The notes beneath the pieces were generated by a model that was given only the letters and a program-made list of their open reading frames with translations, made no database searches and was not told where the DNA came from. From the IMG/VR virus record IMGVR_UViG_3300047462_000177: 61,857 nucleotides of DNA. One strand, written 5' to 3'. Positions 1,813 through 60,222 of the stretch are shown one piece after another. The DNA comes from a virus. The position numbers and the translations under genes were made by a program. The stretch's first letter is position 1; each line of letters begins with the position of its first letter.

Positions 1813-4533
1813 CTATGTCGTATCTGCTTGATCGGGTTTGGGTGTGGGGAGCTCTGTGACGCGGTATGTTTGTTGGCCACTCTGTTCCCCAGCCATTCGG
1901 ACTCCGGCTGTGGACGCTATCAGACTGTAATGTGCCTTGAAATACCTGTCTAGGCGGCGAGCATTAGATAGGATAGGATTACTACGGAACTCACCCATCT
2001 CAACCCAAGCAACTATGTCTAGCATAGTGAAAAGATCCTGAGGACTGCCTTCTCGCCAATTAGTCGTGAACTCGATGATACCCTGAAGCACCCAATCGCT
2101 ATCCGTCGAGGCATTAAGCTGGATCTCCTTCACAGTCTTACGCACGAAGGATTTATCCATACCCACTACTCGAGCTGCAATACCTAAGGCTTGCTCTAGA
2201 TTGGCTAGGCGATGGATAGTATGGAAATTCTCATCCCAGCCACCTTCTTCGACAGGTTTGGCTGCCAACTTGAAGAACCTATGGAGGAATACCAATTGAT
2301 GGGCCATCCACATTTCTCGGCCACCAAACAATTCCATCTTCTTCCGCACCCAATCACTATCGGGGGCCTTGCCTAAGTTGCAAGTCTCGAATATGGTGGA
2401 TCTGGAGAAGAGGTCGGCATTCTGGAAGGGTTGTGTGACAGCTGTGAAACCGAACGTCACATCAACCGGGAATCGAATTAGATCGGCAGTAGTGTAGAGT
2501 TGTCGTACCTCAATCGTGGGATGCGGCTCTGTAGTGAGTCGACAGATCTCGTCTGACATCCTTTGCTTCAGGTCATTCTTGGTGAAGTGGACGTTATCAA
2601 TCACGTGTAGGCCGCCACTATTGGCAAGGGAAGCCTGCCAGTCCTTAATGTCATTAGGCAGATTACGCAGATGAGGACGACCTGTTAGGATATTTAGGCG
2701 CATCTCGTAGAGGCTAGACTTACCACTTCCAGGACCACCTATCATGATCTCCACAGGTAGTTGGATACCTTTCCAACGTTGGAGCCAAGGTGAGATGTAG
2801 TAAAGCAAGGTAGCTAACTCGCGCATACGATGCCCCTGAGGGCTTATCGGGATATCTAGTGAATCTACCTCATCAGGATTCTTATCAGGAAAGGCTGTCT
2901 GGAGGTCCTTCAAATTCCTGCCAATGTTAGTATCCTGGAGGATTTCCCACCACCAGGGTGCTAAAGGCCCTGGCTCCGCATTGATCTGCTCGAAAGCCTC
3001 TAAGACCGTATCTACGTCAAGGGGCTCGACATGATTCTGTTCGAAGAGCAAGCCTAGATCACCATTAGTGCAAAGCTTAATAGGCTCTTCTGTACTTGAT
3101 GAGACAGTGATGAAATTGCTGTCCCCTACTTGGATAGCTATACCATTTGGGTTAGTTGGATCTTCCTTCTCCGTTACTAATGCTCGTACGCGGCGAGGTG
3201 TCACATCCACGATGGGTTCTTCACCTGTAAACTGTGATGCCAACCATGTCAAGACTTTGATGTCACCAGCTCCTAGCCCAAATCTCTGGTACAGTAGGAC
3301 ACCAAAAGGAGTCTCATGCATGAACTGCCCACGACCATTGAGGATAGTAGCAGGCATTAACTTGTATGTCTCCCTGTTGTAGTAGTATGGCTGCCCTGAA
3401 TAAGTATCTCGGAATCGCATCCCATCAGAATCAAGCTCTGCCATGATAACATGGCCAATCTGCTGTGCTAGTTTTCGGTCTTGGAAGTTATTCAGTTGTG
3501 TCCCCAAGAACCCCTTTGAGTTAGGATGTCTAGGGAATTTAGTAGGATCATGGAAGATCTCATGCATCTCCCTGATTATCTGTGACGGCCCATGGATCAT
3601 CAAGTAGTCATCGAGGCCTGTCTTAGTATCCTCATCAGGATGCACTACAGCATCTGCAGGCCTATTGTGGATGTCTGGTAGGATCAACTGTCGGATGCGA
3701 GTTGCGGGCAAACCTAGGTATCGCAATTCATAGCCTAGCATAGTCAATGATCGTTGGATGTCTGCTTTCATTGTCCCGCCAATATCACTATCAAAGATTA
3801 GTACAGGCGTGATATTGAACTGGTTAATGACATCCATCATGTCTTGGAAGCCTTCAGCAAGTGTCATCATTTCAGGCAGTCTGGTATTGCTTCCAGGTAG
3901 CTTGGCTTTGATATCTTGCTTGTTGGAGGTAAGCTCTACTTCCTTTGGCAAGCTTATAGTCCGTGATTTCCAAGAGTCGACACCGCCAAGACCAACAGTA
4001 GGGATTCCCATCTTGGTAGCACAGGCAGCCTTCTTCTCTCCCTCGGTGATCACAAGCATGGCTTGTTGTGGCCACTTTTTCACCCAAGCAATCAGGGTGG
4101 CGTAGAACGCTGGAGGGAAATAGATATGGTTATTGGACTTAGTTGGCTGTCTGTACTTAGAGCCTGACACATTGCTGTTGAAGACCTTAACACGGTAGAA
4201 ATCAATTACAGCTCCTCTTATCGTGTAGTAGGGAATCTTATACCCATCAGCATTTAACGCACCAATAGACCTGCGCATATCAGCATTAAGGAACTGTACA
4301 TCTAGTTCCTCAGGTGTGAGACCACTCTTCGCTAAGTCCGCTATGACTCTTGGATCATATACCTGTTTTGGGTCCTTACCTGATTTTAGGTCAGTAAACA
4401 AGACAACGTTTCCTCCTAGGTCCTCCCCCGAGGGCCCAGAATTAACCGTATTAGGGTCCATTTTAGTTAGCCTCAGACTATAGACTCTTAGTTGCCTAGT
4501 TCCCCACAAAGCTAAGAGTCTGTCAACCCCCAA
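1813..4533 (-). CDS. bifunctional DNA primase / P-loop helicase (Toprim/DUF3854-like N-terminal half plus SF3/D5-like ATPase)
   Basis: ITEGEKKA..GLGGVDSW..IFDSD Toprim-like acidic motifs and a GGPGSGKS Walker A. The likely true start is the ATG at 4461 (MDPNTV) with GAGG upstream. Confidence 0.75.
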   Translation of the reverse strand: MGVDRLLALWGTRQLRVYSLRLTKMDPNTVNSGPSGEDLGGNVVLFTDLKSGKDPKQVYDPRVIADLAKSGLTPEELDVQFLNADMRRSIGALNADGYKIPYYTIRGAVIDFYRVKVFNSNVSGSKYRQPTKSNNHIYFPPAFYATLIAWVKKWPQQAMLVITEGEKKAACATKMGIPTVGLGGVDSWKSRTISLPKEVELTSNKQDIKAKLPGSNTRLPEMMTLAEGFQDMMDVINQFNITPVLIFDSDIGGTMKADIQRSLTMLGYELRYLGLPATRIRQLILPDIHNRPADAVVHPDEDTKTGLDDYLMIHGPSQIIREMHEIFHDPTKFPRHPNSKGFLGTQLNNFQDRKLAQQIGHVIMAELDSDGMRFRDTYSGQPYYYNRETYKLMPATILNGRGQFMHETPFGVLLYQRFGLGAGDIKVLTWLASQFTGEEPIVDVTPRRVRALVTEKEDPTNPNGIAIQVGDSNFITVSSSTEEPIKLCTNGDLGLLFEQNHVEPLDVDTVLEAFEQINAEPGPLAPWWWEILQDTNIGRNLKDLQTAFPDKNPDEVDSLDIPISPQGHRMRELATLLYYISPWLQRWKGIQLPVEIMIGGPGSGKSSLYEMRLNILTGRPHLRNLPNDIKDWQASLANSGGLHVIDNVHFTKNDLKQRMSDEICRLTTEPHPTIEVRQLYTTADLIRFPVDVTFGFTAVTQPFQNADLFSRSTIFETCNLGKAPDSDWVRKKMELFGGREMWMAHQLVFLHRFFKLAAKPVEEGGWDENFHTIHRLANLEQALGIAARVVGMDKSFVRKTVKEIQLNASTDSDWVLQGIIEFTTNWREGSPQDLFTMLDIVAWVEMGEFRSNPILSNARRLDRYFKAHYSLIASTAGVRMAGEQSGQQTYRVTELPTPKPDQADTT

Positions 4534-4573
4534 AGCCTGTCAGAGTAGAGTAATGCAGCTGCGGTTACGGGGC

Positions 4574-4909
4574 TTACCCGTACTGAGGACGCTGCTGGAT
4601 CTTGACCAGCTCATCAGCATTCGGCAGTCGAATGACTGTGTACGCTCTATTCTGACCAATAGGTGATACAGTTGTCCTCACCTCTCGGATGATCTTGCCT
4701 TCGCGGACGAGCTTCTCCAATACAGGACGCCACTCAACAGGCTTCACATGTGGTCCAATACCAGTGTGAAGCATGGTAGGCATCAGGATTGGGTACAGAG
4801 TCAGGACATGGATGATCCTCTTCTCCATTTCATCCATATCTTCGCCTGCCAGACGCTCGAACATCTGGTTTTTCTCGGCAGCCACTTTAACCGGATCCTG
4901 GTAGTTCAT
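4574..4909 (-). CDS. hypothetical protein, possible winged-helix
   Basis: 111-aa ORF. The C-terminal segment LEKLVREGKIIREVRTTVSPIGQNRAYTVIRL looks like a wHTH wing. Confidence 0.45.
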   Translation of the reverse strand: MNYQDPVKVAAEKNQMFERLAGEDMDEMEKRIIHVLTLYPILMPTMLHTGIGPHVKPVEWRPVLEKLVREGKIIREVRTTVSPIGQNRAYTVIRLPNADELVKIQQRPQYG

Positions 4910-4965
4910 TTGAGTATCCTCGTAAGGTAGGGTGTCAGAGTGTCAGAGTATGATGGTATCTGGTA

Positions 4966-4998: not shown

Positions 4999-5367
4999 GA
5001 ACCGCATTTGCTCCATCTCGAGTTCGTATTCGACCTGAGACAGGAGCTCAGCACTGAGAACTTCTCGGCACTTCTCTGGGGAGATCCTCACCTGAGTGAC
5101 TTTCTCCCTTGTCATCTTGTAGACCTCGCCCGTAGCCTCCTTCTTGTCATCTAGACGTGCCTTCAAGGCTGTGCCTAGAAACTTGTCAGCCATTTCGAAG
5201 TGGGCTTTCCACTTTCGTATCCTCGCCACTTCATCGACCAAGGTCTCTGGCGTAGCATTTCCCAGTGAAGGGGGCACATACTTAGCTGGAGCCTCTGGTA
5301 GATCGATATTGGCAATCATGTAGGTAGCCACCTTCGCAGCTGTGGTCGTGCTCATTATGTTCTCCAC
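4987..5367 (-). CDS. hypothetical protein
   Basis: ORF with promoter 5378-5407. The likely start is the ATG at 5355 (MSTTTAAK) after GGAGAA. Confidence 0.6.
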   Translation of the reverse strand: MENIMSTTTAAKVATYMIANIDLPEAPAKYVPPSLGNATPETLVDEVARIRKWKAHFEMADKFLGTALKARLDDKKEATGEVYKMTREKVTQVRISPEKCREVLSAELLSQVEYELEMEQMRFSRK

Positions 5368-6521: not shown

Positions 6522-6552
6522 AGAGTTGATCCCTTCATTTATCTACAACTAT

Positions 6553-6582
6553 ATTATAGAGATAGACTACAGTTGGTCTCAA
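6553..6582 (-). promoter_or_regulatory. sigma70-type promoter (TTGAGA-N18-TATAAT)
   Basis: attata at 6553-6558 and tctcaa at 6577-6582. The upstream CATTTTGACCA box is shared with 60144-60172. Confidence 0.55.
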
Positions 6583-6636
6583 TGGTCAAAATGAAGACCA
6601 GTCTTAGATTTCTTGTGGTCCAACACGCTGAGGTGA

Positions 6637-6671: not shown

Positions 6672-7427
6672 TTAGTTATTGTCCTCCTCTTCTGCTTTCA
6701 TGTCTTCTGGTGACATGTATTTGATGTAGGTCTCGCCAAAGGTTCCTTGACCAATGTCCAAGCAACCACCTGCAGCTAAGTCTGCGATCTCATGTGGATG
6801 GATTATGAGCACCTTTGTGGGTGTAGTCTTTTGTTCAGCCTGTCTTTTGGCAAGGATAGTTAAAAAACGGAGCTCTGGGGTGAATGTAGGGCAGACGCCT
6901 GCGCCGCGACGCGACAGGTCGACGCTACGGAGTTGAGTGCGAAGCAATTTAGCTGCATCACTGCCAATACCATCTTTTAGACCTATAGCATAGGCTTGAT
7001 TAACTAGATGCTGCAGCATTAACTGGATATCAAGTTCTGGTAAGGAGCAATTGGCTCCCCTCAGTTGCTGAGCGTAGACAGCTGCATGATCACGGACGTC
7101 GTCGACTTGAGGCGCCTCAGTGATTTTATAGTCCTCACGTTCAGCTACCTCTATGTAGAAGACTGAGTCGTCGTAGACTTGCTCACCATCATCGATCGCC
7201 TCCCAGATGTACTTGGGTTTGGACCCAAAGCCAAATGGCCACATAACCCTTGTTGGGTTCTGGATCTCGTACAGCTTGCAGATGTTATCAATACAATCCG
7301 CGATCTTTTGATGTGACTTGGCAGGCATTATCACAGGTACAGGGAAAGAGACCTCGATCTTGCTGATCTTCCTACGCTCCATTTTCCGTTCGCTGTCGTT
7401 GCTGTTGTCGTTCGAATTCGTGTTCAT
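6672..7427 (-). CDS. hypothetical protein (251 aa from the ATG at 7427)
   Basis: The track ORF extends to 7574, but the upstream gene stops at 7430-7432 and an ATG (MNTNSNDNS) follows 2 nt later. Repeat copy C lies in frame inside this gene. Confidence 0.6.
   Translation of the reverse strand: MNTNSNDNSNDSERKMERRKISKIEVSFPVPVIMPAKSHQKIADCIDNICKLYEIQNPTRVMWPFGFGSKPKYIWEAIDDGEQVYDDSVFYIEVAEREDYKITEAPQVDDVRDHAAVYAQQLRGANCSLPELDIQLMLQHLVNQAYAIGLKDGIGSDAAKLLRTQLRSVDLSRRGAGVCPTFTPELRFLTILAKRQAEQKTTPTKVLIIHPHEIADLAAGGCLDIGQGTFGETYIKYMSPEDMKAEEEDNN
6877..6914. repeat. GC-rich dispersed repeat family 1, copy C (inside coding sequence)
   Basis: 6877-6903 is identical to 58479-58505, and 6890-6914 is identical to 6637-6661. 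Confidence 0.85.
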
Positions 7428-7429
7428 GG

Positions 7430-7660
7430 TTACTTTGCCTTGTCGGTTATGGTGATAGTCACATCCCAGCCTAGACTTGTGCCTATACTGCGTATTCGCT
7501 CGTACCAGCCTGAAGCATTCCCTGTCGAGAGGATCTCTCCAGGGAACTGCTCCTGAGACAGGCACATAGCACACAGCAGATCAAATGCCTGAGCATCTGT
7601 GATCTGCTGCCCCGCCTTTGGCTGTGTTATTTTCTGCCTCTTTGGTTGCCAGAAGGCCAT
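7430..7660 (-). CDS. hypothetical protein
   Basis: 76-aa ORF tightly packed with its neighbours. Confidence 0.5.
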   Translation of the reverse strand: MAFWQPKRQKITQPKAGQQITDAQAFDLLCAMCLSQEQFPGEILSTGNASGWYERIRSIGTSLGWDVTITITDKAK

Positions 7661-7715: not shown

Positions 7716-8282
7716 TTACACGTCTCCTTTCTGGTTAGGATGTATGAGGCTCTTGTCCATTTGATTGGTGGTGTTGTCTCCTTTTGAACGTACATGGAAG
7801 ACTTCACTTAGGAGCTTGTCAACAGTCTCATGCAACTCACTCCTAAGTTTGTCTTTTAGTGAACTGCCTATGTTGATGACGTGTTGCTTCATCTCCCCTT
7901 CGAAGTCTGCAGCAACAAGTTTAGTCATGATATATTCAGCTCGAGTTATGCTGCTGGAGTAAGAAGTGCATGGCTTACCTTGCTTATCTACCTTAGTATT
8001 CCAGTAGTCACCAATGAGGATTTCCAATTCCTTTCGGATGGTCGTAGTCTTACCGACTTGCTGACCAAAACTATCGACGCGGCAAAATTCGCGCTCGAAG
8101 CTCTGTTTGATTGCCTCCTCCACTGCTCTCGTGATCTGTGCGTTAGCGACAGTCTGGAATAGTTTGTCGATTCGTTCATCTACGGCATGCTGTATTCTCT
8201 TCCTCATATCAGCACTATGTATCATCTCGTCGGCGACTTTGCAGATGATGCCTTCTTCGATCGCCTCTTGGCTGAGTTCCAT
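7716..8282 (-). CDS. hypothetical protein
   Basis: 188-aa ORF predicted to be helical. Confidence 0.6.
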   Translation of the reverse strand: MELSQEAIEEGIICKVADEMIHSADMRKRIQHAVDERIDKLFQTVANAQITRAVEEAIKQSFEREFCRVDSFGQQVGKTTTIRKELEILIGDYWNTKVDKQGKPCTSYSSSITRAEYIMTKLVAADFEGEMKQHVINIGSSLKDKLRSELHETVDKLLSEVFHVRSKGDNTTNQMDKSLIHPNQKGDV

Positions 8283-10316: not shown

Positions 10317-10853
10317 TTAGCCGTAGATACGCATCTGCGGCTCACACGAGCCTTCGTTGATCGCTATCTCCTCTGGCACCACATTCTGGCTTGTCGCCAT
10401 CTGCTGTACTGGCTGCATCTGCTTCTCTACAGAGTTGCGTGGACGCTTGACCTCCTGCGTGAGCACGTTGCGCACGTGCTGGTAGATGATGCCCAGATGA
10501 TTGGCGATCTGAGCGCGCCGAAAGCCGAGAGAGTTCATGTGACGAATCTTGGCGCTCTTCGTTGGCAGCGTATCGAGATAGGCCTGCAGCTCAGCACTGA
10601 CTGCCGACGCCTTTGGTGCGCTCGTTGTCTTGATTCCCTCGAGATTCGTGACTGCTGCCGCCTGCTGATCGCTTGTCGTGTCGATCTCGCCCCACCCTTC
10701 AGGTATCTTTGCGACGATGTCGCTGACGACGATGCCGTGCTCTTCTGCGTCCGCCATCATCTCGTCGACCAGCGCCTCCTGCTCGACCTCTTTCATGTCG
10801 ACTTTACGCAGATCAACGGTGAGGCCGTTGTCTTTGTGATTGTACTTACCCAC
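10317..10853 (-). CDS. hypothetical protein with a C-terminal HTH-like 'YQHVRNV' domain
   Basis: GTG start with AAGGAGA 7 nt upstream. The C-terminal SAKIRHMNSLGFRRAQIANHLGIIYQHVRNVL is paralogous to 15473..15667. Confidence 0.6.
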   Translation of the reverse strand: MGKYNHKDNGLTVDLRKVDMKEVEQEALVDEMMADAEEHGIVVSDIVAKIPEGWGEIDTTSDQQAAAVTNLEGIKTTSAPKASAVSAELQAYLDTLPTKSAKIRHMNSLGFRRAQIANHLGIIYQHVRNVLTQEVKRPRNSVEKQMQPVQQMATSQNVVPEEIAINEGSCEPQMRIYG

Positions 10854-11354: not shown

Positions 11355-11385
11355 CTGTGTTCCTTTGTTTGAGTGCAACAAGATG

Positions 11386-11415
11386 ATTATATAATAGACA
11401 CTAGAAGGTAATCAA
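11386..11415 (-). promoter_or_regulatory. sigma70-type promoter (TTGATT-N18-TATAAT)
   Basis: attata at 11386-11391 and aatcaa at 11410-11415. Confidence 0.55.
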
Positions 11416-11464
11416 GTGTCCAAATGATGTGCGCTCAAGATTCTCTTTTTTGAGATTCGCCCCG

Positions 11465-11540: not shown

Positions 11541-12293
11541 TCAGTCAGCGCGCCCGGGCTTATCCTCTTTTGTTGGGCTTTGTGTGCCCTTTGGGCTTTG
11601 TGTGCCCTTTGGTTTATTTTCTATGCCTAGGATCTGTTCGTCGGTGAGGTCTGGCAAAGGGGCGAATGTGTCTGCGCTTTGCCTTTGCTGCTGGCGATAT
11701 GTGTTGATAAGGAGCAAATGGCTTGGAGACCATTTGCTCTCGTGACCAATGACCGTGCTAGGCTGATATATGGCGTTGTTCACTGTAGTGACTGGGATGT
11801 CTAAATCGTCGGCTATTTGGGAGGCTGGTGTTTTTTGTTTGCGACGACGTAGGATATCGTCAACCGCCTCTTTTTGGCGCTTGATTGGGATGTCCCAGTA
11901 AAGGTTGTCGATATGGCCGTTAGAGGGGTCATTGTCACGGTGCTTACAATACAGTTGGTTGGTTATGGCGTATTGGGTTTCGTCTTTGGGGCCGAACAGC
12001 ATGAGGATTGTACGGTCCCGCTGCATATTGTTTTGTCTGATGCCGTCTTTGTCTATGATGGGTATGACATAGTTCAATTTGCCTAATGGCGTTGTGCCTA
12101 AGAGCTCGTAGCCGCTTGGTAATGGGCGCATGTCCACGAACCAACCACCATCGCAAACAAGGTAGCAGCCCAACAGAGATGGGTCTGGGAGGTCTCTGTA
12201 GTTAAAGCCAAGACGCTTAAATGGCCAAGTGAGATGGGTCATAATCTCGCCGTTGTTGCTGCGGCGCTGTGAGTAGTCCCGTTTCTTTGTCAT
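11541..12293 (-). CDS. HNH-family homing-endonuclease-like protein with a C-terminal HTH
   Basis: CKHRDNDPSNGHIDNLYW is an HNH_3-type block, followed by TPASQIADDLDIPVTTVNNAIY. The C-terminal PKGTQSPKGTQSP is encoded by an 18-mer x2 repeat at 11575-11612. Confidence 0.6.
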   Translation of the reverse strand: MTKKRDYSQRRSNNGEIMTHLTWPFKRLGFNYRDLPDPSLLGCYLVCDGGWFVDMRPLPSGYELLGTTPLGKLNYVIPIIDKDGIRQNNMQRDRTILMLFGPKDETQYAITNQLYCKHRDNDPSNGHIDNLYWDIPIKRQKEAVDDILRRRKQKTPASQIADDLDIPVTTVNNAIYQPSTVIGHESKWSPSHLLLINTYRQQQRQSADTFAPLPDLTDEQILGIENKPKGTQSPKGTQSPTKEDKPGRAD

Positions 12294-12325: not shown

Positions 12326-13504
12326 TCAGAGCATCTGCAGGTTGAAGTAATTGAAGGGTTTGTTAGGGATGTCGTTCCCGTTTTCGTCCCAAGGGATGGA
12401 GATACGTTCGTAGTAGTTGTCGCGAGGGCTTGGGTTGTCAATGTCTTGGAGCCTCTGTTTTTGGAGGAATTCATGGAAGGGCATTGTGCTTGTGTAGGCT
12501 TTGTACGCATTCTGGTAGAGCACTGTATCTGACTCGATCGTGATGTACAGCTCTAAGCGACGTCGGTGTGCTCTTTTCTGGTTTGGGTCTTGTTGTGCTT
12601 GATTGTCGTGCTGAGTTATTGGGAGAGCGCGATACGTGCTCATAAGCTGTTGGATCTTTGGATAGTTTTGCTGTAGATGGTCAAAAATGCGGTAGTAACC
12701 TAAGTGAGGTCTTGGCGAGATGCGGATGATGTCCATCATGATGCCAATGTTTACTTCGGAGTATGACATATTCGGGAATTCGTCGGAGCTTTCCAATTGG
12801 TTTGCACGTTGGTTGGTGTAGGGTTCGATCAATGAGCTCACTTTTGAGGGATCGTCGTAATTACCTTCTTGCCATGCCTCTGCAATGGATTTGTAGGGAG
12901 TCCTGTACTCTTCGCTGCTGTGAGGCTCGGTGTATAGACCACCTGGGATGATGTAGGTTTGGTTAAAGTAGTTGGTTAGATTGCCTGTTGTGGCGATGTA
13001 TATGATTTCCTTGCATATCTTACCAGGAATACCGAAGTGACGTGCGATTTGAGCTAACGGGACGCCATGTGTGGTGTGTGCCGTAGCAATCTCGAAGGCT
13101 GTATCGTGTTGGATACCCTGTAAAGGGTCGTTCCAGCTCAAATTTTCCAGGTTACAGAGTTTGAACCTGTCGCTTACCTTGTAGCTCACATGGCATTTTA
13201 CCATAGGTGGACCACGAAATGTGGTTAGGATGACACGCGCTAAGGGGACTTGTTTTGAGTCTATGGAAACTATCCGGTACCCACCGTGGTTTATTGTAGG
13301 TTTGACGCGTCGTGTCTGGTCGTCTCTGAATAGTTGGCTGTCTCGCAGGACCTCACCATCAGTTGAAGCCCAGTATGGCAAAGTGGTGTCAGGTATCTTG
13401 GCATACAGTAAGGGGTGTTTGGGATCTCGCTGCTTCTCCAGTTCTGCTCTGGTAGGGTAACCCGGTCCAACGGTGGGATCCGTATTGCTGTACATATAGG
13501 GCAT
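12326..13504 (-). CDS. NUMOD4/HNH-like homing-endonuclease-like protein
   Basis: YWASTDGEVLR..HGGYRIVSI (NUMOD4-like), CHVSYKVSDRFKLCNLENLSW (HNH_3-like) and VPLAQIARHFGIPGKICKEIIY (HTH). Confidence 0.55.
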   Translation of the reverse strand: MPYMYSNTDPTVGPGYPTRAELEKQRDPKHPLLYAKIPDTTLPYWASTDGEVLRDSQLFRDDQTRRVKPTINHGGYRIVSIDSKQVPLARVILTTFRGPPMVKCHVSYKVSDRFKLCNLENLSWNDPLQGIQHDTAFEIATAHTTHGVPLAQIARHFGIPGKICKEIIYIATTGNLTNYFNQTYIIPGGLYTEPHSSEEYRTPYKSIAEAWQEGNYDDPSKVSSLIEPYTNQRANQLESSDEFPNMSYSEVNIGIMMDIIRISPRPHLGYYRIFDHLQQNYPKIQQLMSTYRALPITQHDNQAQQDPNQKRAHRRRLELYITIESDTVLYQNAYKAYTSTMPFHEFLQKQRLQDIDNPSPRDNYYERISIPWDENGNDIPNKPFNYFNLQML

Positions 13505-13517
13505 TTGATTTAGGGCT

Positions 13518-13543
13518 CTGTTGCTGTTGCTGTTGCTGTTGCT
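13518..13543. repeat. tandem hexamer (ctgttg)x4 in the 5' leader of 12326..13504
   Basis: Read directly from the sequence. Confidence 0.9.
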
Positions 13544-13551
13544 ACAAGATG

Positions 13552-13580
13552 ATTATATAGGAGACTTTTGGGGCAATCAA
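13552..13580 (-). promoter_or_regulatory. sigma70-type promoter (TTGATT-N17-TATAAT)
   Basis: attata at 13552-13557 and aatcaa at 13575-13580, with a CATTTTGAC box upstream. Confidence 0.55.
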
Positions 13581-13798
13581 TAGTCAAAATGATAGTCGGG
13601 CCTAAAATTTTGTACATGATGAAGAAAAGAAATGTTTGTTTAGAACGGTTTGTGTGTTACTCTGCTTTGCGCTGCTATGCGCTGCTCTGCTCTGCTTTGC
13701 TATGCTTTGCTTTTAGTTTATACAAGTTTATGGATTGTTCTACTTTGTTCTACTTTGTTTGAGTAGAAAAAGGGTTACAAATTATGGTAAAACTGAGA

Positions 13799-14004
13799 CA
13801 ACAAGATGTTAAAATGAATAGCCTTTGCCTAAATTTGGCAATAATCAAAACTGTGATATCGCCCTCATTTTGGATGTAGTTCTTACCTCAATTTGGATGT
13901 AGGTTTTAAGTCCACATCCTCAATTTGGATTTAGTTCCTACCCTCAATTTTTTCGGCCAACAGTGCAGGGTAGGTAGTAGGATATAAATTTTAACATCTT
14001 GTTG
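13799..14004. repeat. perfect 17-bp inverted repeat (13799-13815 / 13988-14004) bracketing 3.5 iterons
   Basis: caacaagatgttaaaat pairs with attttaacatcttgttg. Iterons cctcaWtttggatKtag lie at 13863-13879, 13886-13902 and 13918-13934, with a partial copy at 13942-13950. The context is AT-rich. Confidence 0.85.
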
Positions 14005-14095
14005 AGCATGTTTGCTCAAAATCGATAACCCTTTTTTTTGACTACACATGTAATACAATGTAAAACAATGTGCTCACGGGCCTACACTTTGTATA

Positions 14096-14135
14096 CAAAC
14101 CGTTCCAAACCGTTCCAAACCGTTCCAAACAGTTC
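14096..14135. repeat. tandem 10-mer (caaaccgttc)x4
   Basis: Read directly. The last unit has one mismatch and abuts the first GGACTAGTCC. Confidence 0.9.
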
Positions 14136-14325
14136 GGACTAGTCCCCGACCGGCCCCTGTTCGGACTAGTCCAGACAGGTCCGAGCTGCGTTGGACCGAT
14201 TTAGTTTCACCGCAACCGGCCGCCCGCCAATAACAGTGTGGCAGGGCAGAGACCAGCCGGTTGGACCAGACGGACCAGACGGACCAGTCCAGACAGGGCC
14301 TTGGCCTTGGCCTTGGGACTAGTCC
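14136..14325. promoter_or_regulatory. GGACTAGTCC palindrome cluster I (3 perfect copies)
   Basis: Copies at 14136-14145, 14163-14172 and 14316-14325. Tandem arrays (ggaccagac)x3 at 14263-14289 and (ggcctt)x3 at 14297-14316 lie between them. Confidence 0.7.
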
Positions 14326-14411
14326 TAACATGGCACAGCCTATCAGACTCCTCTCATTGGACCAGTCGATCAGACTCTTTGGCATAATGGACCGGCCTAC
14401 CTCTTGCTCCA

Positions 14412-14474
14412 CAACAAAGGCGACAAAGTCAACAAAGTCAACAAAGGCGACAAAGTCAACAAAGTCAACAAAGT
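14412..14474. repeat. tandem 9-mer array x7 (caacaaagK / cgacaaagt) with 27-nt higher-order periodicity
   Basis: Read directly. An inverted partial copy cgcctttgttg lies at 14491-14501. Confidence 0.9.
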
Positions 14475-14728
14475 CAATTGCTGACCAAGTCGCCTTTGTT
14501 GTGCTCTGCCAGATGCATTGCAGTCTTACTCAACGAATCAGCTGCCCGACAGAGGAAGTATGGTAAATTGACCTCCGATGACACGAAGGTAGCCATTGCA
14601 CTGTAGTACCGTGACAGAACCGGATAGGCCCACACATCTGGCTCATTCGAAGTAACCTGATGTCTGTTCATAACTCCTGACCCCTGACCCCTGACCCCTG
14701 TTAAATGGTGCAGATCTCTCTTCTGCAT
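14474..14728 (-). CDS. questionable 84-aa ORF, possibly leaderless
   Basis: Its ATG at 14728 lies 6 nt after the -10 of promoter 14735-14764. The N-terminus is encoded by (ctgaccc)x3 at 14677-14700. No similarity was recognised. Confidence 0.3.
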   Translation of the reverse strand: MQKRDLHHLTGVRGQGSGVMNRHQVTSNEPDVWAYPVLSRYYSAMATFVSSEVNLPYFLCRAADSLSKTAMHLAEHNKGDLVSN

Positions 14729-14734
14729 ATCTAT

Positions 14735-14764
14735 ATTATATCATAGGACTATAGAGAAAATCAA
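14735..14764 (-). promoter_or_regulatory. sigma70-type promoter (TTGATT-N18-TATAAT) inside the coding-poor island
   Basis: attata at 14735-14740 and aatcaa at 14759-14764. Confidence 0.55.
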
Positions 14765-14807
14765 GATTCTTCTTGAGGTCAAATCATTAATAATTGTTAA
14801 TGTGAAC

Positions 14808-15026
14808 GGACTAGCCCAACGGACCGCTCCTCTCTCGGCTTCGCTCACCTACGACCGACCTCCCGCCAAAGGTGTTCAGGACCGACGGACTAGTCCTGCC
14901 TAGGCCAGACCTACTAGGCCAGACTGACTAGTCCGGACCTAATAGTTAGTACGGTCCGCCCGCAGGGACTAGTCCTGACAGGTCCGCGGCAATTGTCCTG
15001 CCTGGTCCCCGGTCCTGCCTGGTCCC
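14808..15026. promoter_or_regulatory. GGACTAGTCC palindrome cluster II (2 perfect and 2 one-mismatch copies) plus direct repeats
   Basis: Copies at 14808-14817 (1 mismatch), 14887-14896, 14925-14934 (1 mismatch) and 14966-14975. taggccagac x2 at 14901-14910 and 14915-14924. gtcctgcctggtccc x2 at 14995-15009 and 15012-15026. Confidence 0.7.
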
Positions 15027-15040
15027 TTAGGCGCATAAGA

Positions 15041-15062
15041 AAGGGCCCAGAAATGGACCCTT
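15041..15062 (-). terminator. intrinsic terminator candidate ending the HTH / small-TM transcript
   Basis: The minus strand reads AAGGGTCC-ATTTCT-GGGCCCTT (8 bp including one G.U), followed by TCTTAT. Confidence 0.5.
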
Positions 15063-15246
15063 CCTAGATGGACTAATCAATATACCCCGTGGTATAACCT
15101 ATTCTGACCTATTTTGTACCTGTGAGGTATTACCTCCCGACCTTCTACTTTAATGTGAACGTGAATGACCCGCGATAACGCACTGTTGATCATCCGTACG
15201 ACACATTCGTTGTCCTCATAGATGACCGCACCGTAAATAAGCTCAA

Positions 15247-15393
15247 TCACGACATCACCACAACCGCTATTGTTGCAACCAGAGCGATGACAACTGCGAG
15301 CACGACCGCCTGAGGCATCAGACCGACGTAATTGTCAATCGCGCTGACAAACGTATTGACCGGCGTTTCGAGTTGACCGTGTAAGCCATTCAT
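15247..15393 (-). CDS. 48-aa small membrane protein
   Basis: Hand translation gives MNGLHGQLETPVNTFVSAIDNYVGLMPQAVVLAVVIALVATIAVVVMS. GAGAG lies 7 nt upstream. It is below the track threshold. Confidence 0.4.
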   Translation of the reverse strand: MNGLHGQLETPVNTFVSAIDNYVGLMPQAVVLAVVIALVATIAVVVMS

Positions 15394-15420
15394 TGCTTTG
15401 CTCTCTGTCAGAGTTGATCT

Positions 15421-15470
15421 TTAGCTTAGCTTAGCTCAGCTTAGCTTAGCTGAGCTTAGCTTAGCTTAGC
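15421..15470. repeat. pentanucleotide array (ttagc)x10
   Basis: Lies directly after the stop of 15473..15667. Units 4 and 7 are tcagc and tgagc. Confidence 0.9.
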
Positions 15471-15472
15471 TG

Positions 15473-15667
15473 CTACGCCTTTTTCGTCGGCGTAATCTGC
15501 ACATTTCTCACGTGTTGATATCTGATATTCAGCTTCGCTGCGATTTGTGAGCGCGAGAGACCCTTCGATGTAAGCAGACGAATCTTTTCCGAAGTCGACT
15601 TACACGCATCGATCTCAGAATCGATCGTTGAAGCTACCGGCACATCATAGTTGAATTCGTTGATCAT
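15473..15667 (-). CDS. small HTH DNA-binding protein (first gene of the leftward arm)
   Basis: 64 aa. KIRLLTSKGLSRSQIAAKLNIRYQHVRNV is an HTH, with paralogous domains in 10317..10853 and 972..1505. Confidence 0.65.
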   Translation of the reverse strand: MINEFNYDVPVASTIDSEIDACKSTSEKIRLLTSKGLSRSQIAAKLNIRYQHVRNVQITPTKKA

Positions 15668-15689
15668 CTGTCTGACCCTTTTCGTTTCT

Positions 15690-15747
15690 CAAGAGCACTA
15701 TTGCTCTTGTATGAAGATATTATAGTTTGATCTTAAGATCTAAGCTA
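15690..15747 (-). promoter_or_regulatory. leftward promoter with a palindromic operator and a leader hairpin
   Basis: -10 TATAAT (complement at 15719-15724) and a weak -35 TAGCTT (15742-15747). The perfect 12-bp palindrome GATCTTAAGATC at 15729-15740 sits in the spacer. Leader hairpin caagagca-ctat-tgctcttg at 15690-15709. Confidence 0.5.
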
Positions 15748-16037
15748 CTAATCTTTTCGCTTAGCTCTTATTCGCTTTTCGCTTAGCTCTTCTTTTCTCC
15801 TTCTGTTCTCTTCAATAAAAATAATATAATGCGAATCAGAAAATTTCGCAACAGCGAAAAGTGAATAGCTGCTCCGCTATTATCGCTGATGTACGAATGT
15901 GTTAATTTCAACGTCAAATGGGTCCGAAAATGCAGCTCCCGGAAAGGACACCAAAAATTACCTATTCCCTAAAAAAAGCATTAGGCACATCAGCGGCAGC
16001 TTAGGTACACATTAACAAAGATTAATAATTGGACGTC

Positions 16038-16067
16038 TTGATTTTCCAAATATACATAGACTATAAT
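16038..16067 (+). promoter_or_regulatory. rightward sigma70-type promoter (TTGATT-N18-TATAAT)
   Basis: ttgatt at 16038-16043 and tataat at 16062-16067. It is the only family member on the plus strand. Confidence 0.6.
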
Positions 16068-16068
16068 T

Positions 16069-18105
16069 GTGGACAAAGGGACCCTAACAATTACCAATGT
16101 AGCTCCCATCTCTCAGCCCGTAATGCCTACAAGAGCCCAGGTGTTACGCGAAGCTGCCGAGCGCATTCCTAAGAACTCCTTGGGGCTGCCGGAGGGCTAC
16201 TATCGCTCAGATCTCCTTGACCCGCCAATGGTGGTAAAAGGGATCCTAGTCCCAACCGAGCTGTCAGCCCCCATCAACTACACCAGCCAGTCGAGCCAGT
16301 CGAGCCAGTCGAGCCAGTCGAGCCCACAAACAGCAAGCGCTGTCGCCGGCCCTGCTAGCAACAACTCAGGCTCACAAAAAGAGTGCGCGACGCTCGATCT
16401 ACCTGCCACCGAGCCCCCGTCAAATGCAGTGTGCTCAGGCACCACTGGCACCACTGGCACCACCACCACCACCAGCGAGGCATCCTATGTCGAGAGGCAG
16501 TCGGGGAGCCCGAACGCCGAAGGATCTCCGGTCCAGTCCGAGCTCGACGGCATCGGGCGAGGGAACCCAATCCAGATCAGGACGGGGCAGCCGAGCTCTG
16601 AAGGTAGTCAGGGGCAGCAGCAACCATCACACGGGCGGTCTGAAGCATCAGACAACCAGCACTCATGGCCATCACAAGTCGACAGCCGAGCTGGTCAAAC
16701 CGAGAGCCGGACAGGTTCACAAGCCCAAGGCCCCAACCCAGACGTAGGGGACCCTACATCTGCTCAGACACTGATCAGCGAGGATTACAGGCTTCCGGCA
16801 ATCGTATTCAATGAGCGTGTGCTACGCAATGCATATGTACCGTTGAACTACGATGAGGGATACCCTGTCCTACCTGATGGCAAGCCCTACTGGCAACAGT
16901 TGGACTTTGAGCCTCTGGATGCCTTCGTGGCATTCCAGGCTTATGTCGAGATGGGGTCCTACGGCTCCCGACAGCTCTTTCTCCTGCAGGACAAACAGTC
17001 CATGCAGCAGCGCATCCTTGTTGCGCGCAGCAGGATGAACCAGGAAGCCTCAAAGCTAGAGTCCAGAGGCGGCTACTACTACCCGGAGCCCAACGGCCCA
17101 GCAAGTGGCTATCCTAGCTCACACCAGAATAACACCCGTAACCGGCCGCCTGCTCTCTCCCAGGAAGAGCAGGACCGCCGAGATGAGGAAGATCTCCGTG
17201 AAGCAGAACGGGCGAAACAGTCTGCCTTGGATGGCAGTGGCTTCGTCCCTAACGTTACAGGTGGTGATGCACTAGAGCTCTCCGACCAGAAGAGGTCTAA
17301 GCTGTACGGGATGCTCCAAGCGGGAGCTGACCATGACACCTTGATTGAGTGGTACTACCTGTATCACTGGTCAACGCGTGCCTTAGCTCACGATCTCTTC
17401 TACGTGGATAGTATCCGCCGTGGGCGCGAGGCAATGGCCTTGCAGCTGGAGAACGGCCATCTGCAAGACAGCACGCAGATGTATCGCAGGCTCCAGGAAA
17501 TCTTCGACCCTGACAACCCGAAGTACCATGACACCAACGGTGAGAGCCGTTTCTGGCAGAAACTAGCAGGTAGCCCGAAGACAGCTACCGAGTTCTTCAA
17601 GACACTGATCCAGATGCAGCGCCTGAGCGTAGGCCTGTCCCAAGACAGTCCAAGTGTTGCTCTAGGCCGCTTTGCAGACCAGTCCGACGCCGAGCCATCC
17701 AGGGGTAGAGGCCGCCCGAAATCCAACGGCTCGGGCACCCACAGTAACAGTAACAGTAACAGTCTGCCCTCTAGCGCGCGGGGTCAGGCACATGACAACT
17801 TCAGCAGAGGAGCTATCAACCACGGTAACCAGTTGCGCCCTGACGAGCATGGCCGGATCAACCCGGAAGCCCATGCCCAGATAGGCGCCCAGACCAACAC
17901 GGCTAATGCGAATGTGAGTAGGCCACCTATGCGGGGGCTAGGTGGCTTCCAACCTGAGACGGCTACTACTAACACAGCATCGGGGGGTGCTGGGTCTCAG
18001 GTTGGACCGACTGGCGATGAGCGTGCAAGACGAATTGCTCAACTCCTAGATCTTGCACGTGCTCGACAAGCGGGCAGCACCCCACAGAGTCGGGGCTCTA
18101 CATAG
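16069..18105 (+). CDS. large low-complexity protein in the small-terminase position; function unknown
   Basis: It ends 1 nt before TerL. The GTG at 16069 lies 2 nt after the -10, so the ATG at 16123 is the more likely start. In-frame repeats (SQS)x4, (TTG)x3 and (SN)x3. GC-rich. Confidence 0.6.
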   Translation: MDKGTLTITNVAPISQPVMPTRAQVLREAAERIPKNSLGLPEGYYRSDLLDPPMVVKGILVPTELSAPINYTSQSSQSSQSSQSSPQTASAVAGPASNNSGSQKECATLDLPATEPPSNAVCSGTTGTTGTTTTTSEASYVERQSGSPNAEGSPVQSELDGIGRGNPIQIRTGQPSSEGSQGQQQPSHGRSEASDNQHSWPSQVDSRAGQTESRTGSQAQGPNPDVGDPTSAQTLISEDYRLPAIVFNERVLRNAYVPLNYDEGYPVLPDGKPYWQQLDFEPLDAFVAFQAYVEMGSYGSRQLFLLQDKQSMQQRILVARSRMNQEASKLESRGGYYYPEPNGPASGYPSSHQNNTRNRPPALSQEEQDRRDEEDLREAERAKQSALDGSGFVPNVTGGDALELSDQKRSKLYGMLQAGADHDTLIEWYYLYHWSTRALAHDLFYVDSIRRGREAMALQLENGHLQDSTQMYRRLQEIFDPDNPKYHDTNGESRFWQKLAGSPKTATEFFKTLIQMQRLSVGLSQDSPSVALGRFADQSDAEPSRGRGRPKSNGSGTHSNSNSNSLPSSARGQAHDNFSRGAINHGNQLRPDEHGRINPEAHAQIGAQTNTANANVSRPPMRGLGGFQPETATTNTASGGAGSQVGPTGDERARRIAQLLDLARARQAGSTPQSRGST

Positions 18106-29452: not shown

Positions 29453-29950
29453 ATGTCAACGTCAATGCTACGCGATGAGATGGCCTTCACTGCAGGAGGT
29501 CAGGAATTCAAGATACAGCGTATGAGGTTCAAGCAGCTTAAGGTTGCTTGGCCTGCGATCACTCGGATTGCAGAACTGGGCAAGCTTCAGTTTCCACAGA
29601 GAGCTGACGGCACCTTTGTCGACGTCTCGTCAGATCCTAACTTCATGGTCTGGCATGCTGAGAAGCTGGAACTCATGTTGAAGGTCATTACCTCGGCAAT
29701 GCAGCGTACGCAACCGCAGATGACCCAAGACAAGCTGGAGGATATGCTGGACTTGTACGAAACCAAGATGATCCCCGACAAGTTCAACGAGTTACTTGGA
29801 ATCTCTGGATTTGAGCTGGGAAACGGTCAGGGGGAGATGATGGCGGAGATGAGCCCCCAGAGTTCCACGGAGACTGGGACCTTATCATCGCCGAGCTCGT
29901 CACAAATGGTGTCTGTGGCGGCGACTGGGAACGAATCGAAAGCAGCTTAG
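29453..29950 (+). CDS. tail assembly chaperone (G-like)
   Basis: Position before the TMP; contains the slippery heptamer. Confidence 0.7.
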   Translation: MSTSMLRDEMAFTAGGQEFKIQRMRFKQLKVAWPAITRIAELGKLQFPQRADGTFVDVSSDPNFMVWHAEKLELMLKVITSAMQRTQPQMTQDKLEDMLDLYETKMIPDKFNELLGISGFELGNGQGEMMAEMSPQSSTETGTLSSPSSSQMVSVAATGNESKAA

Positions 29951-48920: not shown

Positions 48921-49658
48921 CTACTTGATGCCGGCTACGGCAAAGAATTCCGATCGTGCTGATGGCACATCTCGGAAGAGTCCTCGCACGCAAGATGTGG
49001 AGGTCAGGGTGTCAGGAGTATACACACCTCGACAGGCCATACAGGTATGTAGGCTCTTGATCACTGTTATAGTTCCGTTGGCATCTGTGTAGTCATGTAG
49101 TACGTCTGTTATCTCTTCGCAGAAGATTTCCTGCATGCCTGGACGTGATGTACCAACTGCTTGTACAAGGCGGGCAATCTTGGAGAGGCCGACAACTTTG
49201 CCCCTAGGTATATAACCAACGCAAGCGTGACCCACAGCAGGAAGAAGGTGATGTTCACAGATCATCCTAAAAGGTATGTTGCTTTGTACGATGACGCCTC
49301 CGATGTTCTCAGCCTTAGTTCCCTCGAAGAGGTCTCCTAAGACATCCTTCGGAGTGTAAGGCTTGTTGAACTCAGCTAGGTACTTGAGGAACCTCAGAGG
49401 TGTCTTAGCTTGCGCATCATCAGATTCCCAACCATACATGATGTTCAGCACATGAGCCATGGCATCTACAGCTATCTGCTTCACGCCAGGTACAGGCTCG
49501 TAGTCCGGATTGAGCCCGTCGGCTTCGGCTTCGGCTTCGGCTTCGGCTTCGAGTTCAGTTGGAATGGGAGCTACAGGTGTTGGCTTTCCTTTTTTCCTGT
49601 ATCTGTGGTGACTATTGAAAGCCTGTGCAGGTGTTATCTTACTTGAGGATTTACGCAT
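48921..49658 (-). CDS. folE: GTP cyclohydrolase I
   Basis: ICEHHLLPAVGHACVGYIP..VVGLSKIARLV. The N-terminal extension contains (EA)x5, encoded by (cggctt)x5 at 49520-49549. Confidence 0.85.
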   Translation of the reverse strand: MRKSSSKITPAQAFNSHHRYRKKGKPTPVAPIPTELEAEAEAEAEADGLNPDYEPVPGVKQIAVDAMAHVLNIMYGWESDDAQAKTPLRFLKYLAEFNKPYTPKDVLGDLFEGTKAENIGGVIVQSNIPFRMICEHHLLPAVGHACVGYIPRGKVVGLSKIARLVQAVGTSRPGMQEIFCEEITDVLHDYTDANGTITVIKSLHTCMACRGVYTPDTLTSTSCVRGLFRDVPSARSEFFAVAGIK

Positions 49659-49663
49659 ATCTG

Positions 49664-50431
49664 TTAGACTCCCAACTTGTGACCATACAGCATGGCGTGC
49701 ATTTGCGGAAGGATGGAGACATTAGCAAGGCCATACTTCTGAGCCTCTTCGATCAGCCAGCGATACCTGGTAAGGATCTTGCTAGCTAACACATCACTGT
49801 CAGTCTCGCCGTTATTCTGTGTACCTACTGACAGGAAGAAGTTGACCCTAGGATAGTCAGCATGTAGTTGAGTTGCCCACTCAAGATCTTCAAGATCCAT
49901 TATCACCACCTTGAGGCTAATGCGAGGGGGTGCAATGAGAGATGAGTAGGCTGAGAGCATGTCGCGGTCAAGTTTCTCAGCCATGCCACTGCTTGGTGGC
50001 TTGGGAGAGACTGTGACACTATCGCAGTTGATAAGCCACTGCTTGAAGAACTGCCCCTGTGTCTCGATGGCTACCCGAAAGCCCTCATAGTGAAGTCTAT
50101 CGATCAGCGGTGAGAGCTCATACATCACAGGATCACCACCAGAGATAGTTACCCACTTGGCTCCAGTGTGGGGGCTTCCAAGTTGCAAGAGGGCATCCGT
50201 GATCTGAGTAACTGCTAGGCGCTTGGCGTTCTTCTTCACCTCTTCAGGGAGGACTGCGTGGAGGCTGTCACACCAGTCACACCTGTACCCGCATCCTCCC
50301 AGACGTAGGAAATGGGTAACACGGCCTATCATTGCTCCCTCACCCTGAATAACAGGACCAAATATCTCAATGACAGGCAGCCGTTTGTCTTCGGCTATGT
50401 ACTCGTAAGATACTTTAGCATCGGTAGTCAT
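49664..50431 (-). CDS. queE: 7-carboxy-7-deazaguanine synthase (radical SAM)
   Basis: VIQGEGAMIGRVTHFLRLGGCGYRCDWCDS. Confidence 0.85.
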   Translation of the reverse strand: MTTDAKVSYEYIAEDKRLPVIEIFGPVIQGEGAMIGRVTHFLRLGGCGYRCDWCDSLHAVLPEEVKKNAKRLAVTQITDALLQLGSPHTGAKWVTISGGDPVMYELSPLIDRLHYEGFRVAIETQGQFFKQWLINCDSVTVSPKPPSSGMAEKLDRDMLSAYSSLIAPPRISLKVVIMDLEDLEWATQLHADYPRVNFFLSVGTQNNGETDSDVLASKILTRYRWLIEEAQKYGLANVSILPQMHAMLYGHKLGV

Positions 50432-50952
50432 TGTGGGTACCTCGCAGAGCAGTTAGGTGTCTCGAAGACCTCGACCTCACTCAGCTCTGCAAGGCCTTGA
50501 CTCAGCTCATGGACTCTATCTACCATCAGCTTAAACCAGAACTCTGCAAGGCGTTCAGCTGTAGGAATGAAAGGCACAACGAGAACCTTTGTCTGATTTC
50601 TGTCGCGGTTTTCGTTTACTAGGCAGTAGATCATGGGTTCCCGCTTCACTGTGTGGATAACCATGTCACGGTACTGTTTAGCTGGTATCATGACATGCAG
50701 TAGTGGATCATCAACCCATACCACAGTTCCATGATCACATAGGTCATCACAGTACTCCATCATGACATGCTTGAGGAAGCCGAAGTCTAGAACCATATCA
50801 GTCTGGAATCCTTCTCTGTGTAGTTCTGATGACTTGCACGTGGCATTGATCGTGTATCGATGTCCATGCCAGTTCCAGCACTTCGAGCCATGTGTAGGCA
50901 CACGATGACCAACATCGATGCCTATTTGTCTCGTAATCGAAAAGCCTCCCAT
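50428..50952 (-). CDS. queD: 6-carboxy-5,6,7,8-tetrahydropterin synthase
   Basis: GHRVPTHGSKCWNWHGHRY (H..C..HGH). Confidence 0.8.
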   Translation of the reverse strand: MGGFSITRQIGIDVGHRVPTHGSKCWNWHGHRYTINATCKSSELHREGFQTDMVLDFGFLKHVMMEYCDDLCDHGTVVWVDDPLLHVMIPAKQYRDMVIHTVKREPMIYCLVNENRDRNQTKVLVVPFIPTAERLAEFWFKLMVDRVHELSQGLAELSEVEVFETPNCSARYPQ

Positions 50953-50979
50953 CGTATCAACCTTTCTCCTCGAATTTGA

Positions 50980-60124: not shown

Positions 60125-60143
60125 TATTTCCTCTTAACAACCT

Positions 60144-60172
60144 TATTATATATCAATTCTAAAAGGGTCTCA
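60144..60172 (-). promoter_or_regulatory. sigma70-type promoter (TTGAGA-N17-TATAAT)
   Basis: attata at 60144-60149 and tctcaa at 60167-60172, with a CATTTTGACCA box upstream. Confidence 0.55.
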
Positions 60173-60222
60173 ATGGTCAAAATGATTGTCTGTCCAAATT
60201 ATTTTTAGGTTTAGGCTCAGGC

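Follow-up and report, generated by a model that had tools for sequence, protein, structure and literature searches.

A position-conserved, AT-rich inverted-repeat element in the divergent control region of an uncultured phage is a candidate replication origin

The virus record IMGVR_UViG_3300047462_000177 from IMG/VR (61,857 nucleotides, which we call the window) was assembled as a circle and represents the complete 61.9-kb genome of a phage. A single TGTTGCTGT tandem repeat contains both ends of the contig (1-29 and 61814-61857), so the circle was opened within a repeat. The replication and early genes, which read leftward (13504-972 and 61489-43191), and the structural genes, which read rightward (16069-42524), diverge from a control region at 13505-16069, and the two blocks converge at ~42.5-43.2 kb. 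At the left edge of the control region, roughly opposite the point of convergence on the circle, lies the element that we will discuss: a non-coding, AT-rich cassette bracketed by a perfect inverted repeat (13799-14004). The leftward block encodes a family-A DNA polymerase (PolA), a SNF2-type helicase, a ligase, an exonuclease, and a Sak4-like protein. The rightward block begins with a protein of 678 amino acids (aa), followed by the large terminase subunit (TerL) and the portal protein.

The left arm of the cassette is CAACAAGATGTTAAAAT (13799-13815), which reads ATTTTAACATCTTGTTG on the minus strand. The right arm is ATTTTAACATCTTGTTG (13988-14004), the exact reverse complement of the left arm, and between the two arms is a non-palindromic spacer of 172 bp (13816-13987). 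This arrangement was first described in a reading of the letters alone (the sequence-only reading), and its account of the arms proved exact when we checked them directly with a script. The output of the find_repeats tool lacks this pair. The 17-bp pair is the longest perfect spaced inverted repeat in the window (with 20-500 nt between the arms); across 60 dinucleotide shuffles, the longest such repeats were 11-14 bp.

Within the spacer is an imperfect head-to-tail array of iterons on the plus strand (13863-13950). The core of the array, CCTCAWTTTGGATKTAG, begins at 13863, 13886, and 13918, and a partial copy, CCTCAATT, begins at 13942; these positions, and the spacings of 23, 32, and 24 nt, are as the sequence-only reading gave them. 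The 25-nt copies are 80-88% identical to each other. The core is found only at these three positions in the window, even if 3 mismatches are allowed. Tandem Repeats Finder (TRF) gave the array no score. There is also a degenerate fifth iteron-like copy, TTGCCTAAATTTGG (13825-13838, plus strand), which is 86% identical to TTACCTCAATTTGG, and an inverted partial core, GTCCACATCC (13910-13919, minus strand), which is the reverse complement of GGATGTGGAC. In the predicted fold, this inverted core pairs with the second iteron.

The symmetry continues beyond the arms. The two halves of an extended, imperfect dyad (13734-13824 and 13979-14069) are in register with the core of the element; for instance, AGTAGAAAAAGGGTTA (13762-13777) lies opposite TAACCCTTTTTTTTGACTAC (14026-14045). 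The extended dyad scored 21, while shuffled sequences had a mean score of 9.3 and a maximum of 16.5, and none of 200 shuffles was as good. Farther out, TGTTTAGAACGGTTTGT (13637-13653) pairs with a tandem array of four copies of CAAACCGTTC (14095-14135) over 16 nt, with 94% complementarity.

The cassette was also correctly described as AT-rich: its GC content is 0.36, compared to ~0.51 for the genome, and the most AT-rich 200- and 300-bp stretches of the genome are in 13701-14000. The flanks of the arms are extreme as well. Among all 100-bp stretches, 13721-13820 ranks 2nd in AT content and 13975-14074 ranks 4th. Neither the arm nor the iteron is found anywhere else in the window, except for two promoter look-alikes of the arm (with 3-4 mismatches), which are discussed below.

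Using the 678-aa protein as a marker, we recovered relatives of this phage, whose marker proteins are 33-66% identical to that of the window. Exact-protein look-ups for closer relatives or for polymorphic copies of the phage yielded only ~2-kb contigs that end short of the cassette, or nothing. Among the relatives, the contig of L065 (IMG/VR) is cut before the site, and L205 and L206 are too short upstream to cover it. In the six relatives that have sequence at this position, the promoter of the first leftward early gene and the block upstream of it are conserved (they align with 13550-13620 of the window), and immediately to the right of this block, all six have an AT-rich inverted-repeat element. 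The arms are at 4537-4596 and 4783-4842 in L066 (IMG/VR; 186 nt between the arms), at 714-746 and 922-954 in L067 (IMG/VR; 175 nt), at 7544-7592 and 7763-7811 in L076 (metagenome, 64 kb; 170 nt), and at 7112-7150 and 7327-7365 in L202 (JGI, 67 kb; 176 nt; L203 is identical). L200 (Logan, 58 kb) has a weak element with arms at 4929-4956 and 5128-5155 (171 nt between). L204 (Logan, 98 kb) and L253 are one phage; the inverted repeat of L204 is likewise 17 bp long and perfect (4453-4469 and 4722-4738; 252 nt between), with nested repeats on the same axis.

For five of the six regions that we compared to dinucleotide shuffles (the window and four relatives), the best inverted repeat exceeded all 200 shuffles; L200 failed this test, and L204 was left out of it. 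When the 200-bp stretches of each 10-21-kb locus are ranked by AT content, the element comes first or second in all six relatives. None of the six has an empty site, so we saw no polymorphism for the presence or absence of the element. The presence of an equivalent and partly homologous element at the same syntenic position indicates that the element was inherited vertically and not inserted. (In L076, the large palindrome lies between two direct copies of a 23-nt sequence, at 7476-7498 and 7858-7880, that are 87% identical, and there are more short inverted repeats outside it.)

The arms of five relatives share a box, ATTTCAAYRAGTTAAC. It is present in both arms in L067, L076, L202, and L204, and in one arm in L200. 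Within those five loci, we found no comparably strong match to the box away from the arms. Such a pattern would be expected of a unique locus where a cognate protein binds. When we searched IMG/VR for this box, a single locus with a pair of copies came up, in L253.

In the window, MAFFT aligned the right arm, ATTTTAACATCTTGTTG, with ATTTCAAYRAGTTAAC, and it matches L076 and L202 at 10/17 positions. When we built a position weight matrix (PWM) from the relatives' arms, the window's left arm ranked 11th of ~124,000 positions, in a flipped orientation. Homology of the window's arms to the relatives' box is likely on these alignments, but it is not secure. The window's top match to the relatives' arm box is AGTTCAACGAGTTACTT (29781-29797; 18.1 bits), which is inside an open reading frame (ORF) for a structural gene. 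About 0.5 such matches are expected by chance, and this one is probably not meaningful.

A k-mer search for a motif that is common to all of the elements found nothing above shuffles, and the interiors of the elements cannot be aligned across phages. We considered whether the iterons might be homologs of the relatives' arm box, and we rejected this: the PWM from the arms ranks the iterons in the thousands. By sequence comparison, the conserved feature across the relatives is the inverted pair of arms around an AT-rich spacer, not the iterons. (The 10-mer CTCRWTTTGG is found in the window only at the three iterons, 13863-13934, and in L202 only within three copies of CAGTCTGCTCGATTTGG, at 7573, 8565, and 8729, which are outside of the L202 element. 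This sharing may reflect distant homology or coincidence.)

As we read it, the cassette is the core of a unique, non-coding, mirror-symmetric, AT-rich, and cis-acting DNA site that a small clade of uncultured phages has kept in the divergent control region. The best reading of its role, which we put forward tentatively and at somewhat less than even confidence, is that it is a replication origin in which inverted recognition boxes flank a meltable spacer. The observations that support an origin are the non-random structure, the unique locus, the AT-richness, the divergent position, the synteny, the shared arm box, the probable absence of transcription through the element in the relatives, an encoded protein with Toprim and Walker A features, and the precedent of the PLE satellite (all discussed above or below). 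We infer that a phage-encoded initiator would bind the element by recognizing the two inverted arm boxes; in the window phage, the initiator may also read the 3.6 direct repeats between the arms. The DNA to either side (13721-13820 and 13975-14074), which is among the easiest to melt in the genome, would then open. With the boxes inverted relative to each other, two helicase complexes would load head-to-head and leave in opposite directions, and replication would run with transcription on both gene blocks.

The only candidate for the initiator that we saw is a 906-aa protein encoded on the minus strand at 1813-4533. It contains a Toprim domain (DUF3854, at residues ~150-190) and a P-loop (the Walker A motif GGPGSGKS, at residue 599), and judging from these features, it looks like a primase-helicase. 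It had no match in PDB, NCBIfam, or PHROG. The alpha protein of P4 and the Rep proteins of Staphylococcus aureus pathogenicity islands (SaPI) are initiators of the primase-helicase type. By analogy with them, it is plausible that the 906-aa protein is the initiator.

The origins of SaPI and the ori/crr sites of P4 are similar to the element in that an AT-rich stretch lies between short repeats of either orientation, and in that a Toprim/P-loop primase-helicase-like protein is encoded. However, the SaPI origin abuts the rep gene, and we found no sequence similarity to the proteins or sites of SaPI or P4. The lambda origin also has direct repeats of 17-19 bp, about 23-25 bp apart, beside AT-rich DNA and an inverted repeat. 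But the lambda origin is part of the initiator gene O, and each of its iterons is a palindrome, whereas the element is intergenic, the window phage has no O-like gene, and the window's iterons have little symmetry within them and are missing from the relatives.

In the PLE satellite of ICP1, divergent operons are separated by 2.7 kb of non-coding DNA that contains several repeat families; the origin is found among these, and only one of the families is the true iteron (PMC7145576). The PLE origin uses an adjacent RepA_N initiator and semi-palindromic iterons (PMC7145576). What PLE and the window have in common is repeats in a long non-coding region between divergent gene blocks. In contrast to PLE, we found no RepA_N protein in the window phage, and the conserved feature of its clade is a pair of distant inverted boxes.

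The closest match to the geometry that is conserved in the clade is with archaeal oriC, with its inverted origin recognition boxes (ORB), and with the core origins of simian virus 40 (SV40) and papillomaviruses. In all of these, inverted boxes bracket a meltable, AT-rich spacer, and this geometry loads two helicases in opposite orientations. These origins belong to other domains of life and use wholly different proteins, so the comparison concerns how the site might work and not its family membership. Following the same logic as the archaeal ORB origins or the viral large-T and E1 origins, the element could be an undescribed type of phage origin. It would have two inverted clade boxes (ATTTCAAYRAGTTAAC or a derivative), 170-250 bp apart, around the genome's most meltable DNA, and the DUF3854-Toprim/P-loop primase-helicase would load itself head-to-head, with neither an initiator of the lambda-O or Rep type nor the host's DnaA. 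This more specific proposal is on balance unlikely.

Several observations weigh against an origin. First, iterons are the classic mark of such an origin, but those of the window have no counterpart in any relative, and they could be incidental, because this genome makes short tandem repeats everywhere. Two traits expected of an iteron-type origin are an adjacent AT-rich region that melts easily, which we found in the window and in the relatives, and at least three direct repeats of ~17-22 bp at two to three helical turns, which we found in the window only. Second, the arms of the window and of L066 fit the clade's box weakly (10/17 by alignment); the best PWM score of the window's arms is 9.3 bits, in the flipped orientation; and the spacing of the arms shows no helical phasing across the phages. 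Third, among the neighboring genes (HNH endonucleases and small helix-turn-helix, or HTH, proteins), there was no match to a Rep, O, or DnaA-like family. The gene for the candidate primase-helicase is 9 kb from the element, and DNA binding by its product is putative. Fourth, the window's element lacks DnaA boxes even if up to 2 mismatches are allowed, and the relatives have no clear excess of them over the rest of the locus. The sole match to the IHF consensus in the window is at 643-655, far from the element. The DnaA and IHF results carry little weight because the host has not been identified. Also, the GC skew is uninformative as evidence for an origin, as the transcribed strand and the putative replichore coincide. 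Finally, a terminase site or a regulatory platform would share most of the properties that support an origin.

We also considered an IHF site as a general explanation for the relatives' box, which fits WATCAANNNNTTR in L200 and L202. We dropped this idea, as the window has no such site near the element.

These results bear on the origin that the sequence-only reading had proposed, in which iterons in AT-rich DNA are flanked by an inverted repeat. The cassette is real, and an origin is a reasonable, if unproven, idea. It is partly supported and is still the best-fitting explanation. In its favor, the site is unique and in the most AT-rich DNA of the genome, in the divergent control region, and its position and its arms around an AT-rich spacer are kept in the relatives. 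Against it, the iterons lack counterparts in every relative, and neither DnaA or IHF sites nor a recognizable adjacent initiator gene was found. The emphasis on the iterons was probably misplaced.

Alternatively, the element might be a regulatory platform, which we view as a minority possibility. The arms, and perhaps the iterons, would be operator-like sites for a regulator of the neighboring early promoters; this regulator could be one of the small HTH paralogs that are encoded just to the right, and it might act by DNA looping or by protein titration. The first leftward gene has a strong sigma-70-type early promoter (TTGATT-17-TATAAT, 13552-13580, minus strand), which we used as the syntenic anchor, and the arm resembles the -10/+1 zone of this and another early promoter, ATATAATCATCTTGT(TG), with 14/17 matches at 11392-11376 and 13/17 at 13558-13542. 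(With up to 3 mismatches, 0.12 matches to the arm are expected by chance.) Furthermore, a diverged copy of the adjacent promoter module makes up the cassette's left third. The left 75 bp are colinear with the module of the promoter at 13557 (p ~0.007), and in the paralogous segment at 13800-13872 (minus strand; ACAAGATG ... CAATAATCAAAA ... TGATA), only 2 of 300 shuffles were as good (z = 3.9). Also, the element is flanked in each of the relatives by small HTH genes, two to four in number.

However, both of the key -10 positions have changed in the arms (TATAAT became TTTTAA), and the arms are 220-450 bp from the promoter. The recognition helix of the HTH proteins, IRYQHVRNVL, is near-invariant, while the arms vary between phages. 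And in the relatives, the element has no significant similarity to its own promoter (z < 2.1). We rejected the idea that the element is, in general, a duplicate of a promoter module, as the similarity is significant in the window only, and we treat the resemblance as an apparent lineage-specific duplication and not as the element's general nature.

These promoters and HTH genes belong to larger families. Four leftward promoters (6558, 11391, 13557, and 60150) share the pattern ATCATTTTGACyATTGAkw-N17/18-TATAAT-N4-TTGT, whose upstream block is conserved in the relatives; the extended modules are at 6545-6600, 11378-11435, 13544-13600, and 60137-60195, all on the minus strand. The small HTH paralogs (15473-15667 and 10317-10853 in the window, minus strand) share a near-invariant ...PTKSAKIR...QIAK.LxIRYQHVRNVL... 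motif. There are two to four of them per genome (in the window, L065-L067, and L076). Each of these genes has a promoter to itself, and a GC-rich repeat array and then a terminator come after it. The proteins have distant matches in the Brevundimonas phages MaInes and StAshley. Two HNH-endonuclease-like genes (11541-12293 and 12326-13504, minus strand) lie between copies of one early promoter (ATATAATCATCTTGT at 11392 and 13558), which suggests that a homing endonuclease was inserted and the promoter was duplicated. L066 apparently has an HNH-like gene at the same position, as seen from its translated sequence only.

It is also conceivable, though rather doubtful, that the element is a pac or cos site: the small terminase subunit would bind repeated and inverted sites, and the DNA would be cut nearby. 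The three R sites of lambda cosB, the hexamers on both sides of the cut in P1 pac, and pacL/pacR of SPP1 are similar layouts. Like such a site, the element is unique in each genome and has repeated and inverted boxes around a central region, and the operon that contains TerL starts within the intergenic control region where the element is found. But in every relative, 2.1-3.3 kb (measured to the marker gene) and several leftward genes separate the element from the late operon. In the window, the first late gene is 2.1 kb away from the element and TerL is 4.1 kb away, and in L204, the presumed TerL is at a distance of ~8.4 kb. We identified no small terminase subunit, and extreme AT-richness is not usual for pac or cos sites. 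The ends of the contig lie in the TGTTGCTGT tandem repeat, which is unrelated to the element.

We give still less credence to a neutral origin for the structure, in which slippage, duplication, and inversion of promoter modules recently produced both the palindrome and the tandem units. The genome does have short perfect tandem repeats throughout, many of them intergenic (75 TRF rows, with units of 5-18 nt), and these are crowded into the control region. The duplicated promoter module in the left third of the cassette and the unalignable interiors also fit this explanation, as does L202, in which the promoter-upstream block is found again, inverted, on the far side of the element. On the other hand, a similar arm spacing recurs at the same place in phages whose marker proteins are just 33-66% identical to the window's. 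Also, five lineages keep the same arm box and two keep perfect 17-bp arms. Without selection, these findings together are hard to explain.

A structured non-coding RNA, with the arms as a long closing stem around ~170 nt, is quite improbable. The predicted folds of the two strands are better than those of shuffled sequences (z = -4.1 and -5.9), the same is true for most of the relatives' elements, and a strong leftward promoter in the window (14764-14735) could read into the element. However, any inverted repeat gives such z-scores on both strands, and the minimum free energies show no consistent strand preference. The mismatches between the arms are mostly of the transversion type and do not favor either strand: 145 are non-wobble, and G.T mismatches number 30 on the plus and 19 on the minus strand. 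No Rfam family matched, with only chance-level hits at E up to 10 in 13500-16100, and the GC content is just 30-42%. In the window, a weak promoter-like site (TTAACA-17-TACCAT) points outward from the element. Among the relatives that we scanned (L067, L202, and L204), no sigma-70-like promoter points into the element, and there is a leftward terminator-like hairpin to the right of it, which is clear in L202 and L067 and weak in L204. In L067 and L202, leftward transcription from the modules of small genes meets this hairpin before it reaches the element. The element is probably not transcribed in the relatives, and the evidence points to a site that acts as DNA rather than RNA.

The other proposal of the sequence-only reading, a non-autonomous insertion like a miniature inverted-repeat transposable element (MITE), is extremely improbable and we rejected it: although the cassette is non-coding, AT-rich, and short (206 bp) and does end in perfect 17-bp inverted repeats, the arms are not bordered by direct repeats of 2-12 bp that would mark a target-site duplication (the flanks are GA/AG, AGA/AGC, and differ onward to 12 nt), the symmetry runs past the supposed ends, the window has no second copy and no transposase among the ORFs scanned, and the relatives hold a homologous element at the same site. 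Scans for other copies, which considered exact matches and covered IMG/VR and representative genomes (the host itself not being identified), bear this out. In IMG/VR, there were 34 single matches to the arm and 30 to the iteron, or about the chance expectation, and none of these was paired or extended beyond ~20-30 nt. In one genome for each of 185,579 species, the arm had over 120 single matches in unrelated taxa, and among the matches listed, none was paired or extended beyond ~20-30 nt. We also considered and dropped an integron attC site, a protelomerase site, and a retron, whose size, core motifs, or partner genes do not fit.

Elsewhere in the control region, the 8-bp palindrome GACTAGTC is present six times, confined to two GC-rich arrays (14137-14974); about one copy is expected genome-wide. 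It is also found within the equivalent GC-rich arrays of L066 and L067. From its distribution, it may be the binding site of a conserved protein. At the right edge of the region, a strong rightward promoter (TTGATT-18-TATAAT, 16038-16069) stops 2 nt short of the earliest start codon available for the 678-aa protein, so probably either the true start is downstream or the mRNA is leaderless. (The entry for this protein in the sequence collection has only 428 aa.)

We found no tRNA genes, no Rfam families (at the gathering score), and no DNA-level matches to isolated phages in the whole window. The nearest isolates are the Brevundimonas phages MaInes and StAshley, with 37-47% identity in PolA and TerL; the neighborhood from the HTH gene to TerL is in common, and the gene order beyond it differs. 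The leftward block of the window also contains FolE-, QueE-, and QueC-like genes (48921-51837, minus strand), implying, from these similarities, that the phage's DNA carries a 7-deazaguanine modification.

If the element is a replication origin, then it would be a concrete cis-acting site for a clade of uncultured phages that have PolA and 7-deazaguanine genes and no close cultured relative. Its anatomy is defined and can be tested: an arm box, a spacer, and lineage-specific repeats. The practical use is modest, as a candidate site for building replicons or for marker-frequency studies in this group of phages. More broadly, the comparison across the clade illustrates that the sequence of such a site can change quickly while its geometry stays, and that the most conspicuous repeats (here the iterons) are not necessarily what is conserved and functional.

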